Shown here piece after piece: positions 1 to 64,000 of a DNA stretch of 64,000 bases (position 1 is its first letter; each line of letters starts with the position of its first letter). The stretch comes from an uncultured virus (IMG/VR IMGVR_UViG_3300037455_001519) (lineage: Duplodnaviria; Heunggongvirae; Uroviricota; Caudoviricetes), in IMG/VR virus record IMGVR_UViG_3300037455_001519; one strand, 5' to 3'. The position numbers were made by a program, and so were the translations under genes. Under the pieces are notes generated by a model that ran no database searches, was not told the origin of the DNA, and was given only the letters and a program-made list of their open reading frames with translations.

Positions 1-1611
1 TATATTAAACATCATATCTATTTCATTAGCATTAGATTTAGTTTCTAGTAAAATTGGTTTACTTAATTCAACTAATTGATTAGTTGTTATTTTAAATGTA
101 TTTAATTTATTAGAAACTGTATGATTGTAAGCTAAAATTTCTATATAGTATGAAGTATTTGGATTTAAATTATTTAATTGGCACACAACTTCATTGTCTG
201 AAATTATAGTACTTCCAAAAATATTTAAGTTATTTTCATTTAATCCATATCTACATAAATAAGAACTAGCATTAGATGATTTATCAAAAATAATTTCAGC
301 TTTATTTTTATCAATATTAATATGTTTAATAACTGGAACACTAGGTTTAGAGTATTCAGTTGTAAAAGTTGATATATCACTATCGACTGATTTATTACCA
401 TTTATTGCTGAAATTTTAAAATCATACGTGGTATTTTCTTTTAAGTCACCTATTTCACAATAAATATTATTATCATCAATAACTAAATTACTTGTATTGC
501 TCCATACAGAAGTATCTTTTTCTTTATAATAACAACTATATCGAGTAGCGTTTTCGCTAACTGTATATGTTAATTTTATAGAACTATCTGTAATAGCTGA
601 ACTAATATTTTTTTGTTTTGTTGGTGAAATAAATTCAGTTTCAGAACTCTTAATATCACTTTTAGAAATTTTATCTTTATTAATAGATTGAATTTGAACG
701 TAATATTTTGTTCCATCTTTTAAATTGTTAATAGAACATTGCATACCATTAACAACTTCTATAATTGTACCAGTTTTATCAAATTTTGAATTATCTTCTC
801 CATAATAGCAAGCATATTTTTCTGTATTAATAGTTTTATCAAAATTAACAGATAAACTATTAGTAGAAGAAATAATATTCTTTATTAAAGGAGTTTCTGG
901 TTGTAATATATATTCTTGTAATGATTCTGTTTTTTCTTCATTTTTATTATCTTCTTTATTAGATACATCTTCTACAATTTCTTTATTATCAACTATTTGC
1001 ACATCTAAATCTTCTGAAGGTTCAGGGTTGGAAACAGTATCAGTATTGTTAGACTTTGTATCTACATTTGTATTTTCAACTACATCTTCTTTATCTGTAT
1101 CATTAGTGTGTATTTCAGGTAAAGAAGTTGAAGTATCTTCTTTTTCAACAGAATTATTGTCTTCTTTTTTAATTTCTTCTTGCAATTCTTCAGGTTTTAT
1201 TATCTCGATAGAATCAATATTAGTTTTATTTGTTTCTTGTTCTTGTATTTCTTCTATCTTGTTTTCAATTTGTTTAATTTGATTATCTGAAACAGTATCT
1301 TTATCAATTTGTTTAATTTCTTCTTTTATTTCAGAAATTTTTTCAATTTTATTAACAAATTCATTATTAGATTGTGCTTCAGTAGTAGAAATTGCTACAT
1401 CTTCTTTTGTTAATATAGGATTATCGAAAATTTCGGATAATTTTTTATTAACAATAATTTCCTCCTTTGATTCAATTCTAGTATTTAAAGATTGGTGACT
1501 ATCTAATACATTTGTTGAAGTTCCTATTCCACTATTAAATAGAACGCATAATCCAACAATACTAAATATTCCAATACTAGAAAAAAGTAAAGTTAATTTT
1601 TTATTTTTCAT
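1..1611 (-). CDS. Membrane-anchored surface protein with Cys-containing FN3-like repeats (runs off left edge; missing from ORF track)
   Basis: GGAGG RBS, then ATG at 1611 (MKNKKLTLLFSSIGIFSIVGLCVLF, hydrophobic N-terminus) and an E/K-rich stalk. Repeats such as YSCYY...CEIGDLKENTTYDFKISAING resemble those in 20829-29789. Confidence 0.8.
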   Translation of the reverse strand, partial: MKNKKLTLLFSSIGIFSIVGLCVLFNSGIGTSTNVLDSHQSLNTRIESKEEIIVNKKLSEIFDNPILTKEDVAISTTEAQSNNEFVNKIEKISEIKEEIKQIDKDTVSDNQIKQIENKIEEIQEQETNKTNIDSIEIIKPEELQEEIKKEDNNSVEKEDTSTSLPEIHTNDTDKEDVVENTNVDTKSNNTDTVSNPEPSEDLDVQIVDNKEIVEDVSNKEDNKNEEKTESLQEYILQPETPLIKNIISSTNSLSVNFDKTINTEKYACYYGEDNSKFDKTGTIIEVVNGMQCSINNLKDGTKYYVQIQSINKDKISKSDIKSSETEFISPTKQKNISSAITDSSIKLTYTVSENATRYSCYYKEKDTSVWSNTSNLVIDDNNIYCEIGDLKENTTYDFKISAINGNKSVDSDISTFTTEYSKPSVPVIKHINIDKNKAEIIFDKSSNASSYLCRYGLNENNLNIFGSTIISDNEVVCQLNNLNPNTSYYIEILAYNHTVSNKLNTFKITTNQLVELSKPILLETKSNANEIDMMFNI

Positions 1612-1711
1612 ATAAATACCTCCTATAAAATTGAATCAATTACAATTATTATATTTTAGAATAAATAAGCGATTAAAATGAAAAATGAAGGGTTACTAAT
1701 CAAGAAAAACT

Positions 1712-1740
1712 TTGATTTTTTATCAATAAAATGATATAAT
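1712..1740 (+). promoter_or_regulatory. sigma-A promoter
   Basis: TTGATT-17bp-TATAAT with extended TG, upstream of the GGAGG RBS of 1777. Confidence 0.7.
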
Positions 1741-1776
1741 ATAAAAGAAATTATATATAAGGAGGGTTTATAAGAT

Positions 1777-2331
1777 ATGAAAACAGAAATTTCTTACGAA
1801 GAATTAATAGATGGAGAATCTAATTATGAAAAAGAAATAATTAAAAAAGCAAAAGAAAAAATGGCTAACAAAGAGATGATAACACAGGATATGTCTTTAG
1901 AAGATGCTATAATTTATGCAGGACAAAATTCTGAATCTTTTGTCAGAGAATTTAAGGCGTTAAATAAAAATAAATTAACTTTTAATATATTTGCTGCCTT
2001 ATTAGGACCAATTTATTTTATGTATAGAAAAATGTATCTATCTTCAGTATTATTTATACTACTATCATTAGTTATTGAAGATATTCCATTCTTAAATATA
2101 CTTTATATGTTATTAATGGGTATTGCAGCAAATTATATTTATTACAACAAAGCTTCTTACGAAATAAGAACAATTAATGAAAAATATAAAAATAATAATA
2201 CTGTAAGAAAAGAAATTTTAAGACAAACTGGTGGCGTTAATATTGCATTACCTATGATTTGTGTTTCTTTATTAGTAATCAGTTTAATGTTTTTAATGTC
2301 AATGTTATTTATAGCAGTATTACATATATAG
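1777..2331 (+). CDS. DUF2628-like membrane protein
   Basis: FNIFAALLGPIYFMYRKMY and ANYIYY...GGVN motifs, several TM segments. Confidence 0.7.
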   Translation: MKTEISYEELIDGESNYEKEIIKKAKEKMANKEMITQDMSLEDAIIYAGQNSESFVREFKALNKNKLTFNIFAALLGPIYFMYRKMYLSSVLFILLSLVIEDIPFLNILYMLLMGIAANYIYYNKASYEIRTINEKYKNNNTVRKEILRQTGGVNIALPMICVSLLVISLMFLMSMLFIAVLHI

Positions 2332-2342
2332 GAGAATAAATT

Positions 2343-3052: not shown

Positions 3053-3147
3053 TTATGTCAATTCTGTCATAAAAGTCGAATTATCATTTAATTTTATAAA
3101 TAAAATAATAAGTAGATAGAACTTTGATAAAAGGAGTGATATTAATA

Positions 3148-3810
3148 ATGACAAGAAGAAAGAAAAAGATAATTGATAAAATACTCAAAACTGTTATTTC
3201 CATATGTTTTATTTTGGTGGTATGCTTTTTTGGAGTACATAAATATAACGATTATTTACAAGAATTAGAAGATTTAAAAGTTATTCAAGAGATAGAAAAA
3301 AATTTAAATTACAATAATAGCATATTTGAAGAAGTTATTCCAGATAATTCTTCAGAACAACATAATGTAGAAAGAATTGTAATTAATAGCAAAGATTTAT
3401 TAATATCCAATACATCATATATAGGTGTAATAGAAATTCCGCAATTAGGAGTAAAAAAACCTATAATACAAGGAATCACAAGAAAAGCCATTGCCTCTAA
3501 AGTTGGTTGGGAACCTCATAGTACTATGCCAGGAAATGGTGGTAATGTTGCATTAGCAGCACATAATTCATCAAGTTATTTTGGAAGAATTCATAGTCTT
3601 TCAAATGGAGATAAGATTATTGTTACAACAAAAGATGGAGTTTTTACTTATAAAGTATTTGATAAATTTAAAGTACATAAATCAGAAATTTGGATATATG
3701 ACAAAATTTCAAATTATGAAGAAACTATTACTTTAATAACTTGTGTATATCCAGATAATAATTATAGATGGATTGTAAGAGGAGAATTAATTAATATAGA
3801 AGATTTATAG
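3148..3810 (+). CDS. Sortase (class D-like)
   Basis: N-terminal TM; NVALAAHN (His), ITLITC (Cys), YRWIVRG (Arg) catalytic triad. Start moved to ATG 3148 after AAGGAG. Confidence 0.92.
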   Translation: MTRRKKKIIDKILKTVISICFILVVCFFGVHKYNDYLQELEDLKVIQEIEKNLNYNNSIFEEVIPDNSSEQHNVERIVINSKDLLISNTSYIGVIEIPQLGVKKPIIQGITRKAIASKVGWEPHSTMPGNGGNVALAAHNSSSYFGRIHSLSNGDKIIVTTKDGVFTYKVFDKFKVHKSEIWIYDKISNYEETITLITCVYPDNNYRWIVRGELINIEDL

Positions 3811-3952
3811 TTTAGTAATCTAAAATAAAAATCGAATATATATTTAATTCTTTTTTTATATAATAAGGTTGTAAGTAATGATAAATTACGCATATTTTTA
3901 GATTTATCTTAATTATTTACAAATTGCAAATATATTTGTGGGAGGAAAGTAA

Positions 3953-4735
3953 ATGATTAAAAGTATGAAAAGTTTTTTAAGAACTACTTTATTCTCTATA
4001 TCTTTGTTTGGACTTAGCTTTTGTGCTATTCCTGGAGTTAGTGCTCTAGAAATATTAGCAACAAACTATTCTATGAACGCAACATCTTCTAAGATGACAG
4101 CTCAAGAATTATGTGAAACTGCTAATTTAGTTACTACTGACCCTTCTTCAGGTGTTACTTGGGCTTGCTCTAGTGCCAATTTAGACACTACAAAAGCAGG
4201 TAGATATTCTATTAACATTAGAGCTAACGATGGTTCTAATTCAGAATTAAAAACTATCCAAGTAAGAGTAAAAGCTAATGTTTCTAATACCGCACCTGTA
4301 TTAGAATTAACCCAAAGCTCAGTAACTATTTATAAAGGTGACGAAATTAATTTAAATAGTTTCATCAAGACTGCTACAGATGCAGAAGACGGTAATTTAA
4401 CGCCTACAATAACTAAAAATTTAGATACAGGTAAAGCCGGAGTATATTCAGTAACATATACAATTACTGATGCTCAAGGACTAAAAGATACTAAAAAGCT
4501 TACGGTTAAAGTTATCGCTAAAAGTTCTGAAAGTAATGAGGCAGAAACTATAGTTGTTGACAATAATCAAACTGAACAAGCTCAAACAACAGTTGAAAAT
4601 ACATCAGCTGTAGAAAATAGACAAGAATTACCAAGCACAGCAGATACTACAATGATAAATTTAGGTATTGCTGTAATAGGCTTAGCTGCAATTGGTACAG
4701 TTTTATTTAAAAGAAAAAGAGAATTAGTTGACTAA
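3953..4735 (+). CDS. Cell-wall-anchored protein with Ig-like (DUF5011-type) domains and LPSTA sorting signal
   Basis: Signal peptide; ATDAEDGNLT...DTGKAGVYSVTYTITD Ig motif; C-terminal LPSTA + hydrophobic helix + KRKR. Confidence 0.85.
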   Translation: MIKSMKSFLRTTLFSISLFGLSFCAIPGVSALEILATNYSMNATSSKMTAQELCETANLVTTDPSSGVTWACSSANLDTTKAGRYSINIRANDGSNSELKTIQVRVKANVSNTAPVLELTQSSVTIYKGDEINLNSFIKTATDAEDGNLTPTITKNLDTGKAGVYSVTYTITDAQGLKDTKKLTVKVIAKSSESNEAETIVVDNNQTEQAQTTVENTSAVENRQELPSTADTTMINLGIAVIGLAAIGTVLFKRKRELVD

Positions 4736-4741
4736 AAAAAT

Positions 4742-4769
4742 AAAAAGACCTTATTTAAAGGTCTTTTTT
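4742..4769. terminator. Bidirectional terminator
   Basis: AAAAAGACCTT-attt-AAAGGTCTTTTT between convergent genes. Confidence 0.75.
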
Positions 4770-4780
4770 ATTTGAAGATT

Positions 4781-5353
4781 TTAATCCATATCAAATGGAC
4801 ATTCATCTTCTTCTGCAACTGTTTCAGCAACAGTTTCTTCTGCAACTGGAGCTTCAGCTGCATCTTTTTGGACTCTGTCATAATCCATTACGATTAAAGT
4901 TGGAACATATTTTCCATCTTTATTTTCGTAACCACTAAAGAAAGCATCCTTAACTGCGATAAATGCAGAATCACCTTCAGGTTCTTCTTTTAATGTTACA
5001 CTCATATTTGCATATGTTGTGTTTCCATTATATTCATTTTTTGCAGAAGTTTGCCATTTACCGAATTGGTTTTTGTTAACCCACATTCTAGCAATTGGAC
5101 TTGTTGCTTCTTTTGTGTTATCATCAGCAACTTCATAGTTGTTAACGATAATTTTTGGAGTTCCGTTAGCTCCAACACCTAACATAAATGAATTTATTTG
5201 TACAAATTCAGTTTTAGCAGGTGCTTCGATTTTTGTTGATAAGTTGGCAGGAATAAAACCGGTTTTCTTTTCGCCAGCTTTATTTGTGTATTTTACACCA
5301 ATGCTGTAAGATACCTTTCCATCTTTTTCAACTTTATTTAAGTAACATTTCAT
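4781..5353 (-). CDS. Putative single-stranded DNA-binding protein (two tandem beta-rich units, acidic tail)
   Basis: Internal duplication ending PKIIVNNYE / PTLIVMDYD; acidic tail EEDECPFDMD typical of SSBs; divergent from the DnaQ-like gene. Confidence 0.55.
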   Translation of the reverse strand: MKCYLNKVEKDGKVSYSIGVKYTNKAGEKKTGFIPANLSTKIEAPAKTEFVQINSFMLGVGANGTPKIIVNNYEVADDNTKEATSPIARMWVNKNQFGKWQTSAKNEYNGNTTYANMSVTLKEEPEGDSAFIAVKDAFFSGYENKDGKYVPTLIVMDYDRVQKDAAEAPVAEETVAETVAEEDECPFDMD

Positions 5354-5613: not shown

Positions 5614-6513
5614 ATGAATACTTTTGAAAAAGGCGGGAGCTATTTATCTGATGGAAAGATAAAATATTTCGTTCCGTCTAATAAGATGAATATGGTTTCT
5701 AAATTAAAAAATAATAAATTTATTGTTTTTGACTTAGAAACAACTGCATTAAAACCTGATATTAATTACGGTAAAATTATTGAAATTGGTGCAGTGAAAA
5801 TCGAGGATAATAAAGTAATAGATAGATTTTCTACCTTTATTAATCCCGGTATGAAGATTCCTCAAAAAATTGTTGATTTAACTCATATAACTGATGATAT
5901 GGTTAAAGATGGTCCAGACATTTGGACTGCTGTTAGACAATTTAATGACTTTATTGAAGATGGCTATGTTTTAGTAGCACATAACGCTCGTTTTGATGTA
6001 ACATTTTTAACATATTGGTTGAATAAGATGGGTTTATTTTATGATGCTGACGCTTATGTCTGTACTATGGAAATAGATAAGATAATTCATCCCGATGCAC
6101 AAAATCATAAATTATGTACTTGTATTCAACATTACGGAATTGTTAATAATGCTGCGCATCGAGCAGTAGATGATGCTGAAGCAACAGCTAATTTATTAAT
6201 AAAGCAAAAAGAGGAATTAATTAAAACATTAGATAATGTAAATTATACGTTTTCTAATGAGGGTAAAACAATTGATGTTAATTTATTAAAAATTCGAAGT
6301 TATTCAGATTGGAAAAAACCAGCTGATAAAAATCACGGAGTTTTAGATAGATTATATGTTAATTTATATTACCCAGACGACCAAGTATACGGTTCTGTAT
6401 ATTATGACAGATTAACTCAAACTTGGTTTAATAAAGATTTTCCAGAAACTTATATTTTAGATTTTGGGAAATTAGAAGAAGTAATCAAAGCGCTTAGAAA
6501 GGGGGCATTATAA
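5614..6513 (+). CDS. DEDDh 3'-5' exonuclease (DnaQ/PolC-exo-like)
   Basis: VFDLETT (ExoI), VAHNARFD (ExoII), HRAVDDAEAT (ExoIII). Confidence 0.92.
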   Translation: MNTFEKGGSYLSDGKIKYFVPSNKMNMVSKLKNNKFIVFDLETTALKPDINYGKIIEIGAVKIEDNKVIDRFSTFINPGMKIPQKIVDLTHITDDMVKDGPDIWTAVRQFNDFIEDGYVLVAHNARFDVTFLTYWLNKMGLFYDADAYVCTMEIDKIIHPDAQNHKLCTCIQHYGIVNNAAHRAVDDAEATANLLIKQKEELIKTLDNVNYTFSNEGKTIDVNLLKIRSYSDWKKPADKNHGVLDRLYVNLYYPDDQVYGSVYYDRLTQTWFNKDFPETYILDFGKLEEVIKALRKGAL

Positions 6514-7574
6514 TGATTACTACAACTAAAGATGAAATTTCAAAAATTATTAAAATGAGAAAAGTTCTTGAAAGCAATTATGACTTAGAAAGTATATCTA
6601 CTTTTAAAACATCATTATGCTTTAAAAAAGATAAACTTTATATAATTGTAAATCAAGAAGATAATTATTTACAAATATCTTTAGATATCTTTGATAATAA
6701 TGAAGAAATTTCGTTTGAAACAACTTTTGATGAAGTATTAAAAATAGCTAAAACTTTTACAAAAAAAGCTGACATTAATGTAATTATTAATGACAATAGT
6801 GTCTCTTTTGAAGCTTTGCAAGACAAAGACCTAGTAAAAGAAACTATTATGATTCAAAAAGGAGACTCAACTCCTATTCGTAATTTAAAAGGCTCTGATG
6901 TTTCATCAATAGATTTATTAACAAGTTTAATAGCTTGTTATAAAATCTCTAAAAAAATGGAAGTTATAGCAGATATAAATAGTCAAATTAAAATATCTGT
7001 TGTAGACAATATTTTAAATATAATGTCAAATTCGAATGATGCAATCATTAAAGGTTCTTTTGATTTTATAGGAAAAAATACTAATTTCTATTTAGAAAAA
7101 GAAAATGTAAAAATGGTATATTCTTGTATTCAAGAATCTAAAAGTCTAACTAGTACAATAAGTATTTATGAAGGACTTATTATCCAAGCTGGTTGTTTTA
7201 TTATTTGGAGTAAAAAATCTTCAAGACCAAGTTTTAATATAGAATCATTAATTGATAATATTGAAACAAAATTAGATTTTTCTAAAATTGAAAATTCAGT
7301 TATAGATGAAGCTAATATTAATAAAAGAGATATTGAAGAAAGAATTTGTTATTTAGATAACGAAACGCTTACTTCTAATACTACATCAACCGTATTTTCT
7401 AATATTTCAATTATAGAAGCTGGTTATGCCGATAAAAAAATTAGTGAGCTTTTAAAAATAAAATCACTTGAATTAGATGAATTAGAAATGTATGTCGATA
7501 AAAAATATAATATATTAAAAATGAAAAATGATTTTTTAACATATTATGTTCTTCCACAAAAAAAGACCAATTAA
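6513..7574 (+). CDS. Putative highly divergent DNA polymerase III beta sliding clamp
   Basis: 353 aa (clamp-sized), TAATG-coupled to the exonuclease; C-terminal LTYYVLPQK resembles the DnaN end (YLIMPVR). Confidence 0.45.
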   Translation: MITTTKDEISKIIKMRKVLESNYDLESISTFKTSLCFKKDKLYIIVNQEDNYLQISLDIFDNNEEISFETTFDEVLKIAKTFTKKADINVIINDNSVSFEALQDKDLVKETIMIQKGDSTPIRNLKGSDVSSIDLLTSLIACYKISKKMEVIADINSQIKISVVDNILNIMSNSNDAIIKGSFDFIGKNTNFYLEKENVKMVYSCIQESKSLTSTISIYEGLIIQAGCFIIWSKKSSRPSFNIESLIDNIETKLDFSKIENSVIDEANINKRDIEERICYLDNETLTSNTTSTVFSNISIIEAGYADKKISELLKIKSLELDELEMYVDKKYNILKMKNDFLTYYVLPQKKTN

Positions 7575-7587
7575 ATGGTCTTTTTTT
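7561..7587. terminator. Bidirectional terminator
   Basis: AAAAGACCA-attaaa-TGGTCTTTT between convergent genes. Confidence 0.75.
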
Positions 7588-7588
7588 A

Positions 7589-8317
7589 TTATTCTAAAGT
7601 TCTTTGTTCGAAATATACATTTAAATTATCTAAAGCGTTTCTAATATAAGAAGCAATATCGTTATAATTTTCATTTTGTTCTAATGTATTTATGTCAATT
7701 TTAATGATAAAATCTATCATAATAGGTTCATTTATATCTTTACTACTTTTTGTATATACAGGAGTAAATTCGGTTTTTATATAATTTGACCTTAATAATT
7801 CTGAATGACAAAAGTCTGTCATTATCTTCTTTATTCTTAAAATAAAGAATGGAACAATACATTTTGAAGCTATTTTTAAGTATGCCTCATTATTATTTTC
7901 TAAACCAACATAGTTTTGCATTACATCTTTAGTTAACTTTATTGTTTTATAAACATCTAAAGTTTGTAAATTGTCTGAAATTTTTAGTGCACTTCTTTCG
8001 ATTTCAACTTCTTGTAATGTAATCTGTTCCATTAATCTATTTGCAAATATAGCAATTTCTTCTTCAATTTGTTCTTTGGTTTTCTTATATTTATTATCTT
8101 TTAATAAAATATTTTGAAATTCTTCAATACTAACAGAATTATTTAATAAAGCATTTTTAACTTCTTCATTTATAATTCCGCCTTTATAATATCTTTCATT
8201 AATAATAAATTTAGTATCTTCAAGAACGAATGGATTTGGGTCTCCAGAAGTATACCATTCTGAAATAACTTGTTTTCTAGCAATTAGCTCCTCTCCTAAT
8301 CTATTAATTATTTTCAT
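7589..8317 (-). CDS. Hypothetical protein
   Basis: Long ORF, GGAGG RBS before ATG 8317. Confidence 0.75.
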   Translation of the reverse strand: MKIINRLGEELIARKQVISEWYTSGDPNPFVLEDTKFIINERYYKGGIINEEVKNALLNNSVSIEEFQNILLKDNKYKKTKEQIEEEIAIFANRLMEQITLQEVEIERSALKISDNLQTLDVYKTIKLTKDVMQNYVGLENNNEAYLKIASKCIVPFFILRIKKIMTDFCHSELLRSNYIKTEFTPVYTKSSKDINEPIMIDFIIKIDINTLEQNENYNDIASYIRNALDNLNVYFEQRTLE

Positions 8318-9071
8318 TTTCACTACCTCCTAAGTCGTTAAAAATATCTTTTACATTAATTATTTCTGTATATTCCTCAATATTTGGAACAACAACATCT
8401 TCTTTAAAATCATAAAGAGTAGATTCATAAGATGCAACTCCAATTACTGAAGTATCCTTAATAAAGTTATGTTCTAAAATAGGAGCAAGATTTATTTCTG
8501 TTTTATAACAATAATTATCTTTTATCCCGTTTCTAATAGAAATTGATTTAATATCTTTAATATTTTCACTATTGTTAAAAGATAATATAGAACCCATTTG
8601 TTTTAAAAGTGCATTTATATTATCATCAATTTTTATTGAAGATTGATAATACATAATCTTTTCATCTTTAGAATGAATATTAATATAATTTACATCTTCA
8701 ATTTCTTTTTGTTTGATATTTTTTAGTAAATCAATTAATGAATAATTTATTTTAAAATAAGAATCGTTGTATTTTAAAAATAAATTTTTATTTATTTCAT
8801 AAAGTTTAAGTTCAACAACATTATTATTTATATTTAATTTAATATTTCCATTTATCTTATTTTCTTTTGTATCAAAAGCGATGTCACCAGTTGCGGTAAT
8901 ACTCGTATCATCTACCGCATAATTAATTAAAATATTCTTTTTGAATTTTTGATAACCAGAAGATTCTGAGATTATTTCCTTAGCATCTTGATTAGATATT
9001 TCTTTTGTTGAGCATCCTGTAATACCAAAAATACTACATAATACTATAAAACTTAACAATATTTTTTTCAT
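8304..9071 (-). CDS. Lipoprotein
   Basis: MKK + hydrophobic stretch + lipobox ITGC. Confidence 0.75.
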   Translation of the reverse strand: MKKILLSFIVLCSIFGITGCSTKEISNQDAKEIISESSGYQKFKKNILINYAVDDTSITATGDIAFDTKENKINGNIKLNINNNVVELKLYEINKNLFLKYNDSYFKINYSLIDLLKNIKQKEIEDVNYINIHSKDEKIMYYQSSIKIDDNINALLKQMGSILSFNNSENIKDIKSISIRNGIKDNYCYKTEINLAPILEHNFIKDTSVIGVASYESTLYDFKEDVVVPNIEEYTEIINVKDIFNDLGGSENENN

Positions 9072-9230: not shown

Positions 9231-10016
9231 GTGACAACAAAAATAAAAAGTGTAACTTCTGATATTATCATTCAGAATCAGAAAAAAAGTATTAAATTTG
9301 AAAATAAATTAAAAACATTAGATATAAAATATCGTTATTTAAAAAATAGTTATATAATTTCAGAAATAAATGATGACGATATAAATATATTTATAAATAT
9401 ATTAGCTTGGGAAATAATTAACTCTTTTAATGTAAAAATTAAATTTTTAGATGATAGTTATTCGGAGAATTTTGTTAATTATGTTAATAAAAACCCTTTT
9501 ATTACAATATATGTAAAAGATAAATTAACGGAATATTTTATGAATGATAATTCCGTAATCGATATAGAAAAGTTTATTAAATATAATCTACACAATTTAA
9601 ATTCTGAGTATGAAAAACTGTTGGATAAAATTGATAAAAAAGAAACTTTTAATAAATATATTTTAAAAAGTGTTTTATTTAATGATGATAGATTAAAAAA
9701 TGTTAAAGAATTAAATATAAGATTTATAAGTTATAAAGATATTAATGATTTTGATTGCGAAATCACAACGGACAACAATTTAAAAATAAATTCATTGTTA
9801 GTAGATTCAACAATTAGACTTTATAATTTATCACCTTCATTAAAATCTAGTAAATCTATAATGAAAAACGAAATGAATGCTGCAGTCGCAACTATTATTA
9901 GTATTTGCCCTGCTAAAGTTAATTTTAGTGGTAAATACAATAAAAAAATTGTAAACAATATAATAAAAGAAGTTTCGAAAAATTGTATAAACAATATTGA
10001 TTATGAATTAAAGTAG
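9231..10016 (+). CDS. Hypothetical protein (weak YtxC-like resemblance)
   Basis: GTG start after AGGAAG; IDIEKFIKYNL segment recalls YtxC; family uncertain. Confidence 0.6.
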   Translation: MTTKIKSVTSDIIIQNQKKSIKFENKLKTLDIKYRYLKNSYIISEINDDDINIFINILAWEIINSFNVKIKFLDDSYSENFVNYVNKNPFITIYVKDKLTEYFMNDNSVIDIEKFIKYNLHNLNSEYEKLLDKIDKKETFNKYILKSVLFNDDRLKNVKELNIRFISYKDINDFDCEITTDNNLKINSLLVDSTIRLYNLSPSLKSSKSIMKNEMNAAVATIISICPAKVNFSGKYNKKIVNNIIKEVSKNCINNIDYELK

Positions 10017-10027
10017 GTGAAAAAATA

Positions 10028-10564: not shown

Positions 10565-10578
10565 AAGAGGTGATTTCT

Positions 10579-10965: not shown

Positions 10966-11019
10966 ACTCTTATTTTAAGAGTCTTTTTTGTATTTATCTA
11001 TTTTTTTTAATAAAATATA

Positions 11020-11048
11020 TTGACTTATAGAATCAAAAGTTCTATAAT
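11020..11048 (+). promoter_or_regulatory. sigma-A promoter of primase
   Basis: TTGACT-17bp-TATAAT. Confidence 0.75.
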
Positions 11049-11081
11049 AAAGGAGATTTAATAAGAAAGGAAGTGTCATAG

Positions 11082-14187: not shown

Positions 14188-14279
14188 TATATAGGAAACG
14201 GATATTTCTCCGTCTCCTATATCTAATCTTTTTTGGGGGAAATATCCATTGATTATTAGTATGAAAGGAGCAATATTAT

Positions 14280-53389: not shown

Positions 53390-54019
53390 TTATTTTCTTT
53401 CTTTTTTAGATTTTGATTCTAAGATTTCATCAGCTAAACCTTCTTTAACTGCTTGTTCGGCATTAATCCAGCAATCTGAATATTTTTTATCTTTATATTT
53501 ATTAATTACTTCTTCGCTACTAGCTTCTGCCATTAATTTAAATACTAAATCATTTAAATATTTAGATTCAGCTACTTCTTCTTCCATACTAGCTAATTTA
53601 CCTTGTGTTCCAGAAGATACACTATGAATCATTAATCTAGAATTTCTGCCAATTACGCGCTTACCAGTTGCTCTAATAAATAATATAGCCGCACAAGAAG
53701 CTGCCATACCATAACAGATAACATTTACCTTTGATTTTAAAGATTCCATTGTATCTATAATTCCTAATAAAGCATAAGCTTCTCCACCTGGAGAATTAAT
53801 AATCATTGTGATATCTTTTTCTTCAATTGCATCAAGATAAACTAATTGAGAGTGAATTAATTCAAACATTTGTTGATTAAATTCACCTGTAACATAAATT
53901 ATTCTGTCTTTTAAAACTCTTGAAAAAACATCATATGTAAATCTACCTTTATCGTTTTCTTCATTAATACTAGGAACTACACTTAATCCAGTAGTTTTAT
54001 TAAATAATTCTTGTTTCAT
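53390..54019 (-). CDS. clpP: ATP-dependent Clp protease proteolytic subunit, divergent
   Basis: YDVFSRVLKDRII, INSPGG, GMAASCAA (Ser), MIHS (His), DCWINAEQAVKEGLAD (Asp). Confidence 0.92.
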   Translation of the reverse strand: MKQELFNKTTGLSVVPSINEENDKGRFTYDVFSRVLKDRIIYVTGEFNQQMFELIHSQLVYLDAIEEKDITMIINSPGGEAYALLGIIDTMESLKSKVNVICYGMAASCAAILFIRATGKRVIGRNSRLMIHSVSSGTQGKLASMEEEVAESKYLNDLVFKLMAEASSEEVINKYKDKKYSDCWINAEQAVKEGLADEILESKSKKERK

Positions 54020-54410: not shown

Positions 54411-56342
54411 TTAATTTTCTTCATTTTCATCATCAAATAGAGAATCAATATCAAAGAATGCTTTATCTTGATTTTTATCATCTGAACTATTTTCCTTTTC
54501 TTCTTCAACAGAAATGATATCTTCAGAAGTAGTATCTGTTTCAAAATCGTCATAAGCATAATCAGGTATAAAATCAGGATAATAATTATTGTATTGTTCT
54601 TCTTCGGCATCAGCAAGTTTTTCTAGAGAATTATCAAATTCATCATCTATAGTTTTAATTTTTGGTTCTTCATATTTACGTTCTATATTAATAATCATAT
54701 CTTCATCATCATTATCTGAAATGTAATTTTCATCTACTGTCTCTTCAGATATATTTTGATTATCATCTTCTGTGCTATAATCTATTACTTCATTTTCAGT
54801 ATTTATAACATCAGGAGTACTCACAACAGAATTATTAATATTTTCAATAATGTCTGTAAAATCATTATTTTCTTCAGCATCTATATCTGAATCATCCTCT
54901 ATATCCGTACTAGCTTCTTCAACTATATTAATAATGTCATTTTCACTTTCTTCTTCAGGTTGTTCTACATTTTCTTCAGAAACATTTTCATTTTCTAATA
55001 CATCATCTTCAATTTTATTTACATCATTTGTTTCTGTAAAAATTGATTCTACAACATTGTTTAAATTTTCAGCAGCATTTACTTCATTTGATAATTGATT
55101 TTTCTTTTTCTTCTTTTTCTTTTTTTTCTTTTTACTTTGAGTTTCTAAAGCTTCAGGATTAATATCAACAAGATTATTAATATCAAAACTTTCTGTTTCG
55201 TTTCTATATAAAGTAGGAATATCATCAATATTGTCTAATATAGCATCTACAATATTATCAGATGCAACAGGAAGTTCTTCTTGATTAATAGGGTTAAAAG
55301 TAGATTTTGCGCTATTATTAGATAAACTTTGATTAATATTATAAACTCTATTATTAAAATCTTCATTACTTATTTTAAAAGGAATATTATTATCAGGAAC
55401 GATTGTTTTCTTTTTTAACTTTTTACCAATATTAATAATAGATATTCTTTCTTCTTCGTCATCTAACCCATTATTATAAAAAGCACATTTTCCACATTTT
55501 TTAATACCCTTATCTACAGTCATATAAAAAATGGTATTAGGAGTACGTAATGAAAGTTCTCTAAATAATTGAATCTTATATAAATTAAAATCATCAACTG
55601 TTGTAATAGGTTTAAAATAAGAAAATTTATCAACAAAATATGTTATATCATTAAATACTAAACCAGATAAAAGAATGTAGTTTTTGACACAACTTTCTAA
55701 TAAATATTTAGCATCATAATCAAGTTCAGTAAACGAATTTAAAAATAATGTTGTTGATAAGTCATAGTTTTCATTATACTTAAGTAAATCTCCAATTTCT
55801 GTAATATAGTTATCTGCATCGTCTACATATAAATAATGTGGTCTTTTTAATGTAACTTCAGTATTTTGAATATCTATATATAAATGATGTAATATTTTTT
55901 TAAGCATTCTTCTACTTTTGTCTTTATATTTTTCTTCTTCTAAATCGATTATAATAATAGACTTATTTCTTATTTCTTGTTTATAATCAATTAGTTTAGT
56001 CATTTCATCATAATCATAAGGTTTATCTTCTAAAAGCATTTTATAAGTAGTAATATCAGCACTAGGTTTAATTACTTTTAATTGTGTTTTTCTTTTTAAT
56101 CTATTAGCAAGAGACATTAAAAAATAAGCTTCTTCTTTATCATTAACTATAAAAGTACATCCAACAAAATTACCACCATTTTGAATTTGTTGTTTAGCAA
56201 ATGCTGGAATAATTTTTGTAGTTTTTCCTGAATTTTTAGTTCCTATAACAGCTAAATTTAATAAACGACTTTTTTCAGAAATTTCAACAGTTTCTTCTTT
56301 GTCTATACCAATGATTAAATTTTGAATAGATTTATTATTCAT
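54411..56342 (-). CDS. Degenerate VirD4/TraG-like P-loop protein with long acidic low-complexity tail
   Basis: NLAVIGTKNSGKT Walker A; HYLYVDDAD Walker B; poly-Lys tract; D/E-rich C-terminal half. Confidence 0.6.
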   Translation of the reverse strand: MNNKSIQNLIIGIDKEETVEISEKSRLLNLAVIGTKNSGKTTKIIPAFAKQQIQNGGNFVGCTFIVNDKEEAYFLMSLANRLKRKTQLKVIKPSADITTYKMLLEDKPYDYDEMTKLIDYKQEIRNKSIIIIDLEEEKYKDKSRRMLKKILHHLYIDIQNTEVTLKRPHYLYVDDADNYITEIGDLLKYNENYDLSTTLFLNSFTELDYDAKYLLESCVKNYILLSGLVFNDITYFVDKFSYFKPITTVDDFNLYKIQLFRELSLRTPNTIFYMTVDKGIKKCGKCAFYNNGLDDEEERISIINIGKKLKKKTIVPDNNIPFKISNEDFNNRVYNINQSLSNNSAKSTFNPINQEELPVASDNIVDAILDNIDDIPTLYRNETESFDINNLVDINPEALETQSKKKKKKKKKKKNQLSNEVNAAENLNNVVESIFTETNDVNKIEDDVLENENVSEENVEQPEEESENDIINIVEEASTDIEDDSDIDAEENNDFTDIIENINNSVVSTPDVINTENEVIDYSTEDDNQNISEETVDENYISDNDDEDMIINIERKYEEPKIKTIDDEFDNSLEKLADAEEEQYNNYYPDFIPDYAYDDFETDTTSEDIISVEEEKENSSDDKNQDKAFFDIDSLFDDENEEN

Positions 56343-56469: not shown

Positions 56470-57090
56470 ATGAAAAAACAAAAAACAAGACTAAGATTAA
56501 AAAGAAATGTAAAGGTTACATTACTTTCAATATTAGTCACTTCTATTATGGCAGGAGGTATTGTAGGTATTAAATCATTACAAACTCCACCAACAACAGT
56601 TGTTGACGCTGCTAAAGCAGAAATAACTGAAATAAAAATAGAAGAAATTGAAACTACTGAACCTACTACAGTAGCTGCACCTGTTGTAGCGCCAGTTGAA
56701 GCTGAGGGAACGAAGAAAGTTGAAGAAAAAACAGCAGTAGAAAATAATTCTATGCAATATAGAATGACTTTCTATGCTACTGATGACGGTTATGGAACTG
56801 GTTCTGTAACTGCTTCAGGAAAATCTACTAAAGATTTTCAAATCAATGAAAATGGATGGTATACATACCAAGGAAAACTTGTAGTTGCAACAGCATCAAC
56901 AAGACTTGGTAAAACCAATCAAAAAACATACAAACTTTACGATGAGTTAGAAATAACTATTAAAGGTAAAAAATACGATGCTATCGTATTAGATGCTTGC
57001 GGAGCTTGTATGAAGGGTAAAAAAATTGATTTATTTGTTAGTTCAACAAAATATGGCTATGACGGCCAAGTTACTGTAGTAAAGAAGTAG
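56470..57090 (+). CDS. Membrane-anchored 3D-domain (lytic transglycosylase-like) protein
   Basis: MTFY...TASG, VLDACGAC, KIDLF. Confidence 0.7.
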   Translation: MKKQKTRLRLKRNVKVTLLSILVTSIMAGGIVGIKSLQTPPTTVVDAAKAEITEIKIEEIETTEPTTVAAPVVAPVEAEGTKKVEEKTAVENNSMQYRMTFYATDDGYGTGSVTASGKSTKDFQINENGWYTYQGKLVVATASTRLGKTNQKTYKLYDELEITIKGKKYDAIVLDACGACMKGKKIDLFVSSTKYGYDGQVTVVKK

Positions 57091-57094
57091 TAAG

Positions 57095-57124
57095 GGAAGA
57101 CCAATTAAATGGTCTTTTTCTTTT
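57095..57124 (+). terminator. Intrinsic terminator
   Basis: AAGACCA-attaaa-TGGTCTT plus U tract. Confidence 0.7.
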
Positions 57125-57134
57125 GGTTTTAACC

Positions 57135-57250: not shown

Positions 57251-59671
57251 ATGAAAATTGTTGTGCAAATAAGATTTAATACTTATTACAAACAAAAATT
57301 TGGAATCTATAAAGCTTTCTTATATGATAACAACGGGTATTGTATCGAATCTCAATATTCTTTAAAAGGAAAAACAATTTATCCTTTATTAGAAGGAAGA
57401 TGTTATGAACTTGAAGGAAACGAAGAATATGATAGTAAATATGGTAGAACATTTAATTTTAAAACTGCATTTGAAATTTTCCCAGTTAATAAAAAACAAA
57501 TGTCATATTTAGAAATATCTGAGATTAGAAGAAGCTACAATCGCTTTTTTACTAGTAATATAACAACAAGTGTTATTCAAAAAGAGTTAAGAGAGAGAAT
57601 TGATGAAGAAGATAAAGTAAGACAATTATTAAATTACAATATCAATTTCTTAGATGCTCAAAAACTAGTAGATAACGATGAAGATATTTTAGACAAAATA
57701 AAACAAGACCCGTATATACTATTAGATATTGCAAAAAACTTTGATTTCTTAAAATGTGATAAAATTGCATCAAAATGTAATTTAAATCCAAACGATTCTT
57801 ATCGAGTTAGAACAGGAATTAGAGAAACTTTAAAAGACATTTGTAATAGAACAGGTAATAGTTTTGTTGTTATTGATGAATTTTTTATTAAACTTGTAAA
57901 TGAAAATCTTAAATATTATTTAATACCTGAAGACATAAAAGAAATTATGTCGATATATAATCAAGATAAAAATAATAAATTAATTGATTTTAATGTATTT
58001 CATTTCTTTTATAATACAGTATTTATTCCTGAATTAGAAGAATGCATTCAAAACAATGAAAAGTATTTATTTTTTGAAACAGATTATGATAATATTTTAA
58101 ATGAATTAACAAAATCAGATAAGAAATTTACAGTATATCAAGATAAAATTTATTTAACAGAATTATATGAGGCAGAAGAATTAATTGCTAATAAAATAGT
58201 TGCGTTAAATAAAAATAAATCAGATAAAAATGATAAAAAAGAATTAAAACAACATATTCATATGTACGAAAGTAAAAATTCTATTACGCTTAATAAAAAG
58301 CAAAATGAAGCAATTAACCAAATTCTTGAATTTAAAAATGGTGGTGTATATATATTAACTGGTAAAGCAGGCACAGGCAAAACAACTGTTGTCGACGCAA
58401 TAGTTAATATAAATAATTCACTTAATAAACATTCATTAGTGGCTTTAGCAGCTCCAACAGGAAAAGCTGTAAAAGTAATAAAAGAATCCTTAACTACCTA
58501 TGCACCTGTTAATACTATTCACAGAATGCTAGGATATAATGGAGAAGAATTCCTTTATAATGAAAAAGCACCATTAAATGAAAGTTTTATTATTGTTGAT
58601 GAAACTTCAATGCTAGATTTAGAAATGGCTTCAAATCTTTTAAGAGCTATTAGAGACGACAGTAAAGTTTTATTTTTAGGAGACCCAAATCAATTACCTA
58701 GTATTGGTCCAGGTAAATTCTTAAAAGATATCATAGAATGTCTTCCGGACAATATTATTGAATTGACTGAAATATGTAGACAAAAAAATGGGTCAGGAAT
58801 TATAGAAAATAGTTCCAATATTTTAAATGAAGATATGATACAAACTTCTCAAACTAAAGATAATTATGTATTTTGGGGAAATAATGTAGATTTTTTTACA
58901 AAGAGATTATTTCAATCCATAGATTATTTAAAAAATAAATGTGGATTATCTAATGACGAAATAGAAATATTAACGCCAATGAGAATTGGACCATTAGGAA
59001 CATATCAATTAAATAAAATATTACAACAAAAATTTAATCCTCAAGGATATTCATTAATGGATATAGAAGAATATACCGATATTAAATCTTTCACTCCTAA
59101 CAAATTCAAAATAGGAGACAAAGTAATTAATATTAAAAATAATTATCAAATTTATAAATACGATAGACCTATTAACAGCGTAAACATAGATAGTTACATT
59201 GTTTATTGTACAAATATTATTATGAATGAAAATAATGTAAATAGATTAGACGGTAAAATAAAAGCTATAGGTGTTGCTAATGGAGAGTCTGGATATATTA
59301 CAGACATCTTTAGCACAGAAATTCCTATATTCGATTCTAAAGGAAGATTTAGAGGAAGAAAGAAAGCTGATTGTATTACCGTTGAGTTTGATGACGGATA
59401 TATATGTTTCGTTGATTCCACTGATTTACGTTTAGGTTATGCTGTAAGTGTACATAAAAGCCAAGGTAGTGGATGGAAAGGTGTAATTAGTATAGTTGGC
59501 CCTGGTCATCAAAAAATGGCTTGTAATGAATTAATATATGTTACAAATACACGTGCAAGAGAGCAAAATATTTATATTGGTAGTGAAGATATTTATAAAG
59601 AAGGTATTCACGTTCATTTAAATGATAGATTAACTACTTTAGTAAAAAGATTCCAACAAAAAAACAAATAG
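57251..59671 (+). CDS. recD2: Second RecD2-like SF1B helicase
   Basis: GKAGTGKT, APTGKAV, VDETSM, GDPNQLPSIG, YAVSVHKSQGS, YVTNTRAR. Confidence 0.9.
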   Translation: MKIVVQIRFNTYYKQKFGIYKAFLYDNNGYCIESQYSLKGKTIYPLLEGRCYELEGNEEYDSKYGRTFNFKTAFEIFPVNKKQMSYLEISEIRRSYNRFFTSNITTSVIQKELRERIDEEDKVRQLLNYNINFLDAQKLVDNDEDILDKIKQDPYILLDIAKNFDFLKCDKIASKCNLNPNDSYRVRTGIRETLKDICNRTGNSFVVIDEFFIKLVNENLKYYLIPEDIKEIMSIYNQDKNNKLIDFNVFHFFYNTVFIPELEECIQNNEKYLFFETDYDNILNELTKSDKKFTVYQDKIYLTELYEAEELIANKIVALNKNKSDKNDKKELKQHIHMYESKNSITLNKKQNEAINQILEFKNGGVYILTGKAGTGKTTVVDAIVNINNSLNKHSLVALAAPTGKAVKVIKESLTTYAPVNTIHRMLGYNGEEFLYNEKAPLNESFIIVDETSMLDLEMASNLLRAIRDDSKVLFLGDPNQLPSIGPGKFLKDIIECLPDNIIELTEICRQKNGSGIIENSSNILNEDMIQTSQTKDNYVFWGNNVDFFTKRLFQSIDYLKNKCGLSNDEIEILTPMRIGPLGTYQLNKILQQKFNPQGYSLMDIEEYTDIKSFTPNKFKIGDKVINIKNNYQIYKYDRPINSVNIDSYIVYCTNIIMNENNVNRLDGKIKAIGVANGESGYITDIFSTEIPIFDSKGRFRGRKKADCITVEFDDGYICFVDSTDLRLGYAVSVHKSQGSGWKGVISIVGPGHQKMACNELIYVTNTRAREQNIYIGSEDIYKEGIHVHLNDRLTTLVKRFQQKNK

Positions 59672-61060: not shown

Positions 61061-61894
61061 ATGGAAGAAAAGAGGGAAAGATATTCAAGCAGAATCGCTT
61101 GTTACAATAATATATATAATACGTCTAATGTGCCTTTTTGGGTATATTCAAACGTAATAGATAATTTTATGACAATGTTAGGAAATGTCGATGAATATAC
61201 AGAATATCATTGCTTTAGAGTAGCAACATTAACTAGCTTAATGTTAGAATTTGCAATAAATGCTCAAATAAATGAAGAAATTAATCAATTAAATAATCTT
61301 CAATGCAAAGATATCGTATATGGAGCTTATGTACACGACATTGGAAAAGCACAAGTACCAAGTTATATCTTAAGAGATAAAGAAAAATTAACAGAAGATG
61401 AATGGGTAGCATTAAAGGCGCATCCTGTAAATGGTGCATTTATGTTTTTGGGCCCAGGATTTGAAACTATCAGAGAAACTATACTTGGACATCACGAAAG
61501 ATTTGATGGAAATGGATATCCAATGGGAGATTGTGGAAAACAAATCGCATTAGGAGCACGTTTAGTTTGCGTATGTGATTCTTTAGATGCAATGACAGAC
61601 AAAAGACCATATCAAAATAATCAACCATTAACATTAGAAGAAGCATTGGTCGAAATAAACAAATTTGCTGAAACGCAATTTGACCCAGATATTGTAAATA
61701 TATTAAATGAACTCGTAAAAACTAAAGAATTCCAAGAATATTGGAATAATAGAAAAAATAAAGAATATTTAAAATTAGAATCAGAAAGAATTAAAAATTG
61801 GTTATATAATAAAGACCAACTTGAAGAAAAAATAAAAGTAGAAGAAAGAAATGTCGCAGTGATGAGAAAAATTTTAAATATAAAAAAGAGCTAA
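61061..61894 (+). CDS. Stand-alone HD-GYP domain phosphodiesterase
   Basis: HCFRV, HDIGK, HPVNG, HHERFDGNGYP, DSLDAMTDKRPY, QFDP. Confidence 0.92.
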   Translation: MEEKRERYSSRIACYNNIYNTSNVPFWVYSNVIDNFMTMLGNVDEYTEYHCFRVATLTSLMLEFAINAQINEEINQLNNLQCKDIVYGAYVHDIGKAQVPSYILRDKEKLTEDEWVALKAHPVNGAFMFLGPGFETIRETILGHHERFDGNGYPMGDCGKQIALGARLVCVCDSLDAMTDKRPYQNNQPLTLEEALVEINKFAETQFDPDIVNILNELVKTKEFQEYWNNRKNKEYLKLESERIKNWLYNKDQLEEKIKVEERNVAVMRKILNIKKS

Positions 61895-61913
61895 TTAATA
61901 GCTCTTTATTTTT

Positions 61914-62360
61914 TTATTCAAAATCAAGAAGACTTTCGTCGCATTGTACTTCATTTTCTGAAAGGCCGTCTAAATCAAAACTAACTAAAGTAGACATACG
62001 ATATTTTACATTAATCAAAATTTCTGATAAATATTTAATAAGTTCTTCTTTACTAGTAAAGGAAACTGTTTGAAATTTTATTTTATAATTTCTATTTGTT
62101 CTAATGTTGTTGTTTTTGTCTAAACTTTGATTTTCTTCCATAAAAATTTGATATGCATAACCGCTATATACCACGTCAGGATTCATAACATTATCTATAC
62201 CAAATTCAGTAGATACTTTATCCAAAATTTCATCAATTTTTTTTGAGATTAATTTAGGATATCTATTAGAAATTTCATTAATTTGTAAACTATAATTATT
62301 GTCAATTTGAACAGCTATTAAATTTTCATCTGAATATAATATATTATTCATAATTTTCAT
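61914..62360 (-). CDS. Hypothetical protein
   Basis: AGGAG RBS; 148 aa. Confidence 0.7.
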   Translation of the reverse strand: MKIMNNILYSDENLIAVQIDNNYSLQINEISNRYPKLISKKIDEILDKVSTEFGIDNVMNPDVVYSGYAYQIFMEENQSLDKNNNIRTNRNYKIKFQTVSFTSKEELIKYLSEILINVKYRMSTLVSFDLDGLSENEVQCDESLLDFE

Positions 62361-62492
62361 CTCCTAATATTGATATTTATTAATATAATTATAGCATATA
62401 TATATAGTATGTGCAAATAAAAGATGTTTTATAAAAAAGAAAAGTAGAAGAATTTATATAAAAATATTATATAATAAAAAAGAGGTGAGCCT

Positions 62493-63266
62493 ATGAAAAA
62501 GAAAATATATATACTGATGGCAATCTGTGTACTATTATTAACAGTAACCGGTTGTGGAAAACAAGATAACAATAATAAACAAAATAATAATTCTCAAAAC
62601 AAAATAAATATAGAAACGAGCGAAAGTGAAAATTATGAAGTTTTTACCAAAATGTCTATTAATGATTTATATGATGCTACGTGGTCAGATAATTCATTCT
62701 TCGTTTTATACTATGATGGTTCTGAAGCTTCTGAGTTACTAAAAAAAGAAGTAGAAAAATTAGGTCATAAATACAAATGGAACATTTATTTAATAGATAT
62801 AAATGAATTATATGAAGAAAAATTAAAAGAAAAAGACGTAATAGCCGAAATAGACTTAGAAAAACAAACGTTTATAGAAAAATATTGTAAATATATCGAA
62901 ATCAATGAAAGCAATATAAATTTATACAGTGAAGATGAAATTGAAACAAAAGATGGAAAACAAGTTGTCTTTGAATGTTCTGCTAAAGTTGCAAAAGAAA
63001 AAGACCCAGAAATTAATATAGAAGAAAATGAAATTCCAATGTATTCTTGCAATACCTGTGAAAAAGTAAAACGAGAAATATTAAATAGTTTAAACACAGA
63101 ATATGGAACAGATTTAGTATATTATCAAGAAGGAGATATCGCTGCAAGTCTTGACGGATATTTACCTGATGGATATCAATCTTTAAACTATTCTGAAAAG
63201 AATTCTTTAATCGAAGAATCTAACGATAATCTAGAAACTTGGTTTAAAGAAATAATTGAAGCATAA
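62493..63266 (+). CDS. Lipoprotein, possible thioredoxin-like fold without CxxC at the canonical site
   Basis: Lipobox VTGC; FFVLYYDGSEASE at the CxxC-equivalent position; CNTC later. Confidence 0.7.
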   Translation: MKKKIYILMAICVLLLTVTGCGKQDNNNKQNNNSQNKINIETSESENYEVFTKMSINDLYDATWSDNSFFVLYYDGSEASELLKKEVEKLGHKYKWNIYLIDINELYEEKLKEKDVIAEIDLEKQTFIEKYCKYIEINESNINLYSEDEIETKDGKQVVFECSAKVAKEKDPEINIEENEIPMYSCNTCEKVKREILNSLNTEYGTDLVYYQEGDIAASLDGYLPDGYQSLNYSEKNSLIEESNDNLETWFKEIIEA

Positions 63267-63288
63267 ATAAAAAAACTAGCTAATACAG

Positions 63289-64000
63289 CTAGTTTTCTTT
63301 TGAATATTTTTGAGGATTCTGTAATTGGTCAAGAGTTTGATTTTTTTCAGATTCATTGTTTACAACAATTACAGCACCTATATATTCTTTATTATTTAAT
63401 TTAATGCTATATGTGTATATTCCAGGTGTTGAAATATCAACATTTTCGGTATTTATTGTTAATTTATTTAACATATTTTTCGAAATATTTTCTTCTATAT
63501 AAGCATCATACTGATTAGGTAACATTGTATTTTTAACTAATACAATGTTTTTTAATGTAATATTGTCAATTACTTGCTCTTCAACTGATTTAGAGTCATT
63601 AGAATTAAAATATCTAATTAAAGTATAAGTATTTCCAACAATCAAGAATAACATTAACACAATAAATATTATATAAATTTTCTTTTTATTTGATGGATTA
63701 CTTTCTCTTATTTCGAACGATTTATTAGTTTTTTCATTAGTAACAATGAATTTCTTTTTTTCACTAATTAAATCTTCAATAAAATCAAAATCTAATTCCT
63801 GTTTATTGGCCAGATTTTTTATTTTAAGATTTGAAATAATCGTTTTAGCTTTTATTTCATCAATAACAACAGGTGAAATATTTTTTTCTTTATAAATCTT
63901 AAGAAGCGTTGAAGGAGCCCACTCTTCCGTAACCTTATCAAAACAATACTCGTCATCATCAATTACTTTTATTAAAGTATCATTTCTGAATAAATAATAT
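63289..64000 (-). CDS. Membrane protein with C-terminal Ig-like domain (start lies beyond right edge)
   Basis: Frame stays open from 63660 to the window end; TM KKKIYIIFIVLMLFLIVG; VDISTPGIYTY..KEYIGAVIVV like 44779. Confidence 0.75.
   Translation of the reverse strand, partial: YYLFRNDTLIKVIDDDEYCFDKVTEEWAPSTLLKIYKEKNISPVVIDEIKAKTIISNLKIKNLANKQELDFDFIEDLISEKKKFIVTNEKTNKSFEIRESNPSNKKKIYIIFIVLMLFLIVGNTYTLIRYFNSNDSKSVEEQVIDNITLKNIVLVKNTMLPNQYDAYIEENISKNMLNKLTINTENVDISTPGIYTYSIKLNNKEYIGAVIVVNNESEKNQTLDQLQNPQKYSKEN

Follow-up and report, generated by a model that had tools for sequence, protein, structure and literature searches.

Large plasmids of Bacillota and the Inocles are the closest systems so far described. 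In the sections of their papers that were available, pJFP838A, BTB_502p and pSC2 are each presented as unique or free of homology; the copy number of BTB_502p is given as about 1.8 (PMC3569317), and pJeoMA was demonstrated by pulsed-field gel electrophoresis in a report whose consulted sections leave its role open (PMC5027565). The Inocles are described, in the consulted sections of their report, as giant elements of oral Streptococcus that are lost on liquid culture; their InoC protein averages 454 amino acids (aa) and carries an N-terminal PF13814 domain, and their polymerase kit was read as serving DNA repair or stress tolerance (PMC12340149). Here, a stretch of 64,000 nucleotides from the IMG/VR virus record IMGVR_UViG_3300037455_001519 (the window) was analysed; it makes up about 90% of a source contig of ~71 kb (the longest contig was 71,195 bp). 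Most likely the window represents a deep branch, from the ruminant gut, of a megaplasmid family that extends across Bacillota. A probability of roughly 85% was assigned to its origin from a plasmid of the BTB_502p/pSC2/pJFP838A lineage that is large, present in few copies and carried by a low-GC Bacillota host of the ruminant gut. This link joins, at the family level, giant plasmids that had each been reported as unique; nothing treating them as one family was found in the literature covered, which left out most subscription journals.

The family was delimited with a 324-aa protein of the window, referred to below as the marker (Table 1), which, in a search of 72,556 plasmid records, matched exactly 11, with ~30% identity across nearly its full length. 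All 11 records are Bacillota plasmids of 127-722 kb (two are equal in length and may be one plasmid), and the topology was circular in the nine that were viewed. They comprise BTB_502p (NC_018878), pSC2 (NC_014628), pJFP838A (NZ_CP013615), pJeoMA (CP009417), pGspE55-1 (NZ_AP022558), a 300-kb element of C. difficile BI1 (NC_017177) and five more. The same 11 records were retrieved with an independent probe, the canonical 417-aa Replic_Relax protein of pGspE55-1. Nine of them filled the top nine plasmid-database rows for the MoxR ATPase of the window, 10 filled the best 10 rows for its DnaE, and the best three rows for its GyrB-like protein, at 48-51% identity, also fell within the set. The pCDBI1 described in PMC12291638 (as far as the available text goes) is a different plasmid, of 45-48 kb.

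The open reading frames (ORFs) of the window were then compared with five whole or near-whole plasmids of the set. At least one of the five was matched by 21 of the 52 window proteins, and all five were matched by the primase, MoxR, VWA, DnaE, marker, S1, RecD2 and TopB proteins; GyrB, LigA, RuvC and Tmk were patchy, with homologues in one to three of the five (two for RuvC). The earlier note, made from the letters of the stretch, had described the replication genes as scattered in short units. Two conserved blocks were found instead. The order and strand of primase, moxR, VWA and dnaE are kept in four of the five plasmids and in a sixth, from Aneurinibacillus, in which ruvC sits upstream of the primase gene. 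The second block, S1 followed by the marker gene (305-325 aa) and divergent from recD2, is present in the window and in all nine plasmid loci compared (nine of the 11 records), the S1 gene holding the same position in each and being annotated as S1 in eight. The MoxR/VWA pair and the S1 protein had been overlooked in that note, as had the beta clamp described below. In the smallest relative, pGspE55-1, primase, MoxR, VWA, DnaE and SSB are kept together with PrgI, a VirD4-type protein, Tad and ParM, and no capsid, terminase or other virion annotation is present on this fully listed plasmid; because the primase-to-SSB set is retained there without virion annotation, replication is favoured as the core role of the kit. 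An unannotated protein of ~350 aa (15982-17043 in the locus of one relative) was also seen in all five plasmids, at 36-43% identity, and is a candidate further marker.

A tree of DnaE was built from 62 sequences and 525 core columns and rooted at the midpoint. Its genome-derived members came from two phylum samples, one centred on a Mollicutes-titled genome (the 30 best of 119 matches) and the other on a genome of Lachnospiraceae (the 25 best of 29); a single viral DnaE was added. The DnaE of the window joined those of five plasmids in a clade with support of 1.0, and the 55 genome-derived sequences and the viral one fell outside. In the GyrB tree, the sequences of the window and BTB_502p grouped together and were separate from 30 GyrB/ParE sequences taken from genomes. 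Trees had been proposed in the earlier note as a check on chromosomal origin, and neither protein was placed with the sampled chromosomal orthologues. The DnaE of the window has an N-terminal extension of ~140 aa (16358-16800) and insertions (~17300-18200); some plasmid relatives align only from residue 74-93 of the window protein. In pJFP838A (9997-14528 of the locus compared) and the BI1 element dnaE is split at one and the same place, past the GRGSAAGS region, which suggests an intron or similar insertion in both clostridial plasmids.

The primase is of a plasmid type: in the search made with it, E values dropped from 5e-26 to 4e-9 before DnaG-type proteins were reached. Among the matches listed in a scan of genome contigs, the Aneurinibacillus plasmid held the sole true relative, the rest being DnaG. 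The same primase subfamily (35% identity over 91%) is found on plasmids of 149-276 kb in C. botulinum and C. sporogenes; these plasmids stand outside the set of 11 because neither marker matches them.

The ORF whose start codon overlaps the stop codon of the DEDDh exonuclease gene had no match in Pfam, NCBIfam or PHROGs. With an AF2 model built from six sequences (pLDDT 77), all PDB rows listed by Foldseek were beta clamps (best E 2.3e-14, TM-score ~0.58, ~10% identity), and the Atlas's own model of the protein gave TM-scores of 0.73-0.77 against beta clamps. According to these models the protein has the three-domain beta clamp (DnaN) processivity fold, a new find that every profile library missed. 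As in bacterial DnaN, an alpha/beta domain fold is repeated over the full length; the window protein is, however, only ~10% identical and missed by DnaN profiles, and its gene adjoins an exonuclease gene instead of dnaA/recF. Five metagenomic homologues (38-59% identity) were found, on contigs of up to 203 kb. The exonuclease, which has homologues in four of the five plasmids, is the probable proofreader. DnaE carries QLTIF at residue 1209, which resembles the clamp-binding consensus. Two conserved 350-aa plasmid proteins were inspected as clamp candidates and rejected by eye, one being helical-looking and the other membrane-anchored.

The marker was modelled at a pLDDT of 95, with an N-terminal winged helix and a C-terminal part that gave weak nuclease-fold matches. 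Foldseek returned no match to the model at E<=0.001, and the structural matches by VIA spanned the winged helix only (best Z 9.0, rmsd 2.0 over 84 residues, to TubR). PF13814 did not match the window protein, and matched 36 of 135 family members at E<=0.1. In the alignment column that we take to hold the catalytic Asp, Ser was present in 50 of the 135 members and Asp in 17. As a separate canonical PF13814 gene (open frames of 436-477 aa) is carried by all five relatives, the marker is a paralogue; it was rejected as a Replic_Relax relaxase on the missing PF13814 match and the mostly replaced presumed Asp, and is more likely a DNA-binding regulator. The marker family comprises 191 clusters at 50% identity in metagenomes, and in its tree the window falls in a well-supported clade on a long branch. 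One cluster of 33 members, seen on many metagenome contigs that reach 286 kb, suggests that a common relative exists.

The protein encoded at 54411-56342 was 33-37% identical to a hypothetical family, present in three of the five plasmids, that is distinct from the true coupling proteins; true VirD4s were matched over short stretches only (E 5e-5), and a Walker A motif lies at residue 34. In the absence of a family match, it was rejected as a full-length, membrane-anchored VirD4. The two genes that had been read as transfer functions, Replic_Relax-like and VirD4-like, are therefore paralogues, distinct from the canonical genes for relaxase and coupling protein that the relatives carry. The relatives hold a canonical Replic_Relax of 410-450 aa, VirD4, VirB4 and Tad pili, none of which is encoded in the window. 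The window further differs from the 11 plasmids in its long marker branch, a clamp-fold gene unmatched by sequence, its own surface proteins, and a short acidic ORF, possibly a remnant, in the place where relatives have a response regulator.

The 52 ORFs of the window (26.1% GC, 91.9% coding) were scanned against Pfam, NCBIfam and PHROGs, and the features are collected in Table 1. The scans bore out the inventory of the earlier note, which listed dnaE, a DnaQ-like exonuclease, primase, ligA, a gyrB-like gene, topB, ruvC, two recD2 and tmk together with a sortase and adhesin-type proteins, the latter being an LPXTG protein and large surface proteins. The motifs that we take to be catalytic were unbroken in the named replication enzymes. 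Only the SSB-like gene of that list failed, with no match in the three libraries or among PDB sequences and none by blastp to the SSB of pGspE55-1; the label is on that account unverified.

Table 1. Features of the window, with strand and basis of assignment (plasmid counts refer to the five compared).
Positions	Strand	Feature	Basis
3124-4735	+	Sortase (3124-3810) and adjoining Ig-like, LPSTA-anchored protein	Pfam, NCBIfam
4781-5353	-	Orphan with acidic C-terminus ('SSB-like')	No profile match
5614-6513	+	Stand-alone DEDDh 3'-5' exonuclease, epsilon/PolC-exo-like	Pfam RNase_T 6e-36; motifs intact
6513-7574	+	Highly diverged, predicted beta sliding-clamp-fold protein	Structure searches
7589-8323	-	Conserved hypothetical protein of plasmid family	blastp to plasmid ORFs
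10028-10564	+	RuvC Holliday junction resolvase	Pfam 3e-13
11082-12368	+	Primase, CHC2 zinc finger and DUF3854 TOPRIM; plasmid type, not DnaG type	Pfam
12529-14187	+	MoxR-type AAA+ ATPase	Pfam AAA_5
14280-16202	+	VWA-domain partner of MoxR ATPase	Pfam VWA 4e-8
16358-20800	+	DnaE (Pol III alpha) with N-terminal extension	Pfam, NCBIfam
20829-29798	-	Two paralogous large surface proteins: LamG, glycine-rich, fn3, Listeria-Bacteroides repeats	Pfam
29915-31813	-	GyrB/ParE-like type II topoisomerase B subunit	NCBIfam
31956-32930	-	Family marker, 324 aa: winged helix and degenerate nuclease-like domain, remote Replic_Relax relative	
32944-33813	-	S1-domain protein, directly upstream of marker	Pfam S1 4e-8
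33813-34049	-	78-aa acidic ORF	Position (response regulator in relatives); no sequence match in five plasmids
34162-36492	+	RecD2 helicase, divergent from S1-marker unit	TIGR01448 above cut-off; 5/5 plasmids
36925-37554	-	Thymidylate kinase (Tmk)	Pfam, NCBIfam; 3/5 plasmids
37815-40574	-	Topoisomerase III (TopB 38457-40574) and separate ORF of C-terminal repeats	Pfam, NCBIfam; TopB 5/5 plasmids
46918-48888	+	NAD-dependent DNA ligase LigA	Pfam, NCBIfam; 3/5 plasmids
53390-54019	-	ClpP-type protease	Pfam, PHROGs; 1/5 plasmids
54411-56342	-	VirD4-like P-loop domain, truncated (~240 aa), with long acidic tail	blastp
57251-59671	+	Second RecD2-like helicase	NCBIfam
61061-61894	+	HD-domain (HD-GYP-like) protein	Profile match; 4/5 plasmids

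The conserved hypothetical protein at 7589-8323 matched ORFs of 231-243 aa in three of the five plasmids (blastp E 2e-7 to 4e-5), and a separate second RecD2-like locus is present in four. The ORF at 37815-38369, immediately after topB, consists only of topoisomerase III zinc-ribbon and C-terminal repeats. The two surface-protein genes are 70-80% identical to each other in DNA sequence; their products had no match in the five plasmids, nor in 61 + 61 genomes in a search run without a positive control. The protein at 50084-50989, in which a DUF559-like nuclease is joined to DUF4379 zinc fingers, is possibly a homing-type endonuclease. No type II topoisomerase A subunit was found in the window, and no transposase or insertion sequence among its ORFs. 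No iteron or CRISPR-like array was conspicuous among the repeats of the window, and promoter-like sites were at chance level (125 vs 144). Hairpins of the terminator kind numbered nine in the first 20 kb of the window, with 4.0 expected. Mutually similar short hairpins flanked by A/T lie between convergent genes (4728-4782, 7556-7593, 36909-36946 and 57090-57127) and look like bidirectional terminators.

Part of the dnaE of the window was found in 20 sequencing runs from 13 studies, those with a label being bovine, goat or unspecified gut. Of four runs compared, those from two bovine studies gave contigs of 0.4-3.7 kb with no difference from the window, one of them spanning ruvC-primase-moxR; the remaining two gave short conserved matches only. 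Close relatives lie on metagenomic contigs of 144 and 203 kb, and a metagenome scan for the marker yielded three short contigs at 32-33% identity. No marker was confirmed when genome contigs were scanned by pattern, and a sample of 400 genomes from one low-GC order yielded no full-length marker and two weak partial matches. The N-terminus of the marker was weakly matched (E 4e-4) by an open frame of 454 aa, the average length of InoC, in a low-GC genome (76086-79313).

Several observations weigh against assignment of the window to the plasmid family. No match in the five plasmids was found for 31 of the 52 window proteins, mostly surface proteins and orphans, and the identities of the others are ~25-54%. 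A canonical relaxase, VirB4, a Par system and a helicase of the replicative type are all missing from the window, and what was covered of the replicon ends with the 71-kb contig. The trees were midpoint-rooted and held no Bacillus- or Streptococcus-type chromosomal orthologues, and the GyrB grouping is the weaker because it rests on two long branches. Residues 262-319 of the clamp model are of low confidence, and the Atlas feature clusters nearest to the protein are mostly viral (Uroviricota). No clamp homologue was detected in nine isolate plasmids, by sequence profile or by hhalign over 201 ORFs, an absence that is not demonstrated because the same profile also misses PDB clamps. Two PHROGs matches also count here: the ClpP-type protease matched a phage head-maturation protease profile (E 2.6e-38), a weak argument because the families appear to overlap, and an fn3 repeat weakly matched a tail profile (E 4e-4). 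The megaplasmid-like replicon proposed in the earlier note is supported by the distribution of the marker, the gene order and the two trees.

Among the other explanations, the one that survives best, although we hold it unlikely, is that of a megaplasmid whose polymerase kit serves repair or stress tolerance and whose DNA is copied by the host replisome. Many Bacillota use DnaE as an accessory polymerase, neither a replicative helicase nor a clamp loader was seen in the window, and GyrB, LigA, RuvC and Tmk are patchy in the relatives. A repair reading of this kind was also proposed for the Inocles in the available sections of their report (PMC12340149). On the other side, primase and DnaE are present in all five relatives, even the one of 127 kb, and mostly in one block, and a private clamp joined to a proofreader, together with a primase, would suit replication better. 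The claim in the earlier note of a Pol III-type replisome of its own is thus strengthened by the clamp fold, and incomplete in the window as regards helicase and loader.

An element integrated into the chromosome of an uncultured Bacillota bacterium, or turned into a chromid of it, is improbable. The contig is linear and short, and one cluster of primase homologues includes a 6.0-Mb contig, so that some members of the family are possibly integrated or misassembled. Against this, no tRNA, transfer-messenger RNA, rRNA, ribosomal-protein or metabolic gene was found in the 64 kb, and Rfam gave no match there at gathering score; the marker records are all circular-plasmid entries (on the topology of the nine viewed), and the 400 genomes of the low-GC order lacked a full-length marker.

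A jumbo phage or phage-plasmid with its virion module outside the window was judged very improbable. In its favour stand the ClpP and clamp-cluster matches given above, primase relatives in 18 viral loci, and a complete 199-kb viral record that holds seven of the 52 window proteins (exonuclease, primase, DnaE, two RecD2 and two topoisomerase ORFs). That record, however, has no MoxR, VWA, S1 or marker protein, and the plasmid clade does not include its DnaE; the marker was absent from two pattern scans of viral contigs; the window has a sortase and an LPXTG substrate; and pGspE55-1 is without virion annotation. As the earlier note had stated for capsid and terminase, none of capsid, terminase, portal or ribosomal protein was found among the 52 ORFs. 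A scan with the PF03237 terminase profile gave no match in four plasmids, but it missed the viral record too. That the contig is chimeric or misassembled is hardly credible: no single record in the other runs covers the 20 kb compared, but contigs without differences came from two other studies, one bridging ruvC-primase-moxR, and the gene order agrees with that of distant plasmids.

The preferred reading, a plasmid of the BTB_502p/pSC2/pJFP838A lineage, invites comparison with the Inocles, made here against the accessible sections and annotation table of their report. By annotation only, DnaE, a PolC-type exonuclease, Tmk, a RecD-like helicase, GyrB, Topo III, a sortase, LPXTG proteins and a glutaredoxin-like protein are common to both, and each of the five plasmids has one PF13814 gene of InoC size. 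The Replic_Relax-like gene of the window, in contrast, is the 324-aa paralogue and not InoC. The Inocles are 300-400 kb circles of Streptococcus in the human mouth and carry insertion sequences, whereas the window comes from the ruminant gut and has none; the annotation table of the Inocles has no 'primase', 'MoxR' or 'von Willebrand' entry, most Inocle families being unannotated. The element appears to work like an Inocle and is not filed as one, the likeness resting on annotation and not on Inocle sequences. The undescribed class suggested in the earlier note holds only partly: no description as a family was found, but databases already contain at least 11 relatives from cultures, and the kit of the Inocles is comparable. 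An old superfamily of conjugative giant plasmids across Bacilli and Clostridia, uniting the isolate megaplasmids reported as unique with the Inocles and well over 100 uncultured lineages and copied by a private Pol III-type replisome, is offered tentatively, as somewhat less probable than its opposite; in it, the ruminant branch would have a clamp orthogonal to that of the host, with MoxR/VWA as loader or assembly factor.

For the plasmid itself, elongation with its own enzymes is a reasonably probable mechanism. Primers would be laid by its own primase and extended by DnaE on its own beta clamp, with proofreading by the adjacent DEDDh enzyme; nicks would be sealed by LigA, daughters unlinked by Topo III, the type II topoisomerase and RuvC, and forks cleared or restarted by RecD2. 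With a clamp only 10% like those of hosts, the replisome may be insulated from the proteins of the host that bind clamps; its helicase and loader would be located elsewhere on the element or borrowed. It is doubtful, and put forward as a suggestion, that MoxR/VWA assembles or loads part of the replisome and that S1 and the marker act as an origin- or oriT-binding regulator and not as a nicking enzyme. Transfer would probably proceed through a type IV secretion system and Tad pili, as seen in the relatives, and the sortase-anchored and large repeat proteins may remodel the host surface.

All 11 relatives are non-mobilizable according to MOB-suite, and hypothetical genes make up most of their content, so that routine plasmid typing all but overlooks the group. 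This megaplasmid group can now be delimited with two markers, and the marker family is large in metagenomes. If the Inocles belong to it, the stable cultured pGspE55-1, pSC2 and BTB_502p make their replication and transfer testable. A clamp, exonuclease, DnaE and primase set on a plasmid would recast 'DNA repair' genes as an autonomous replisome, and such a replisome could serve laboratory Bacilli as an orthogonal replication system.

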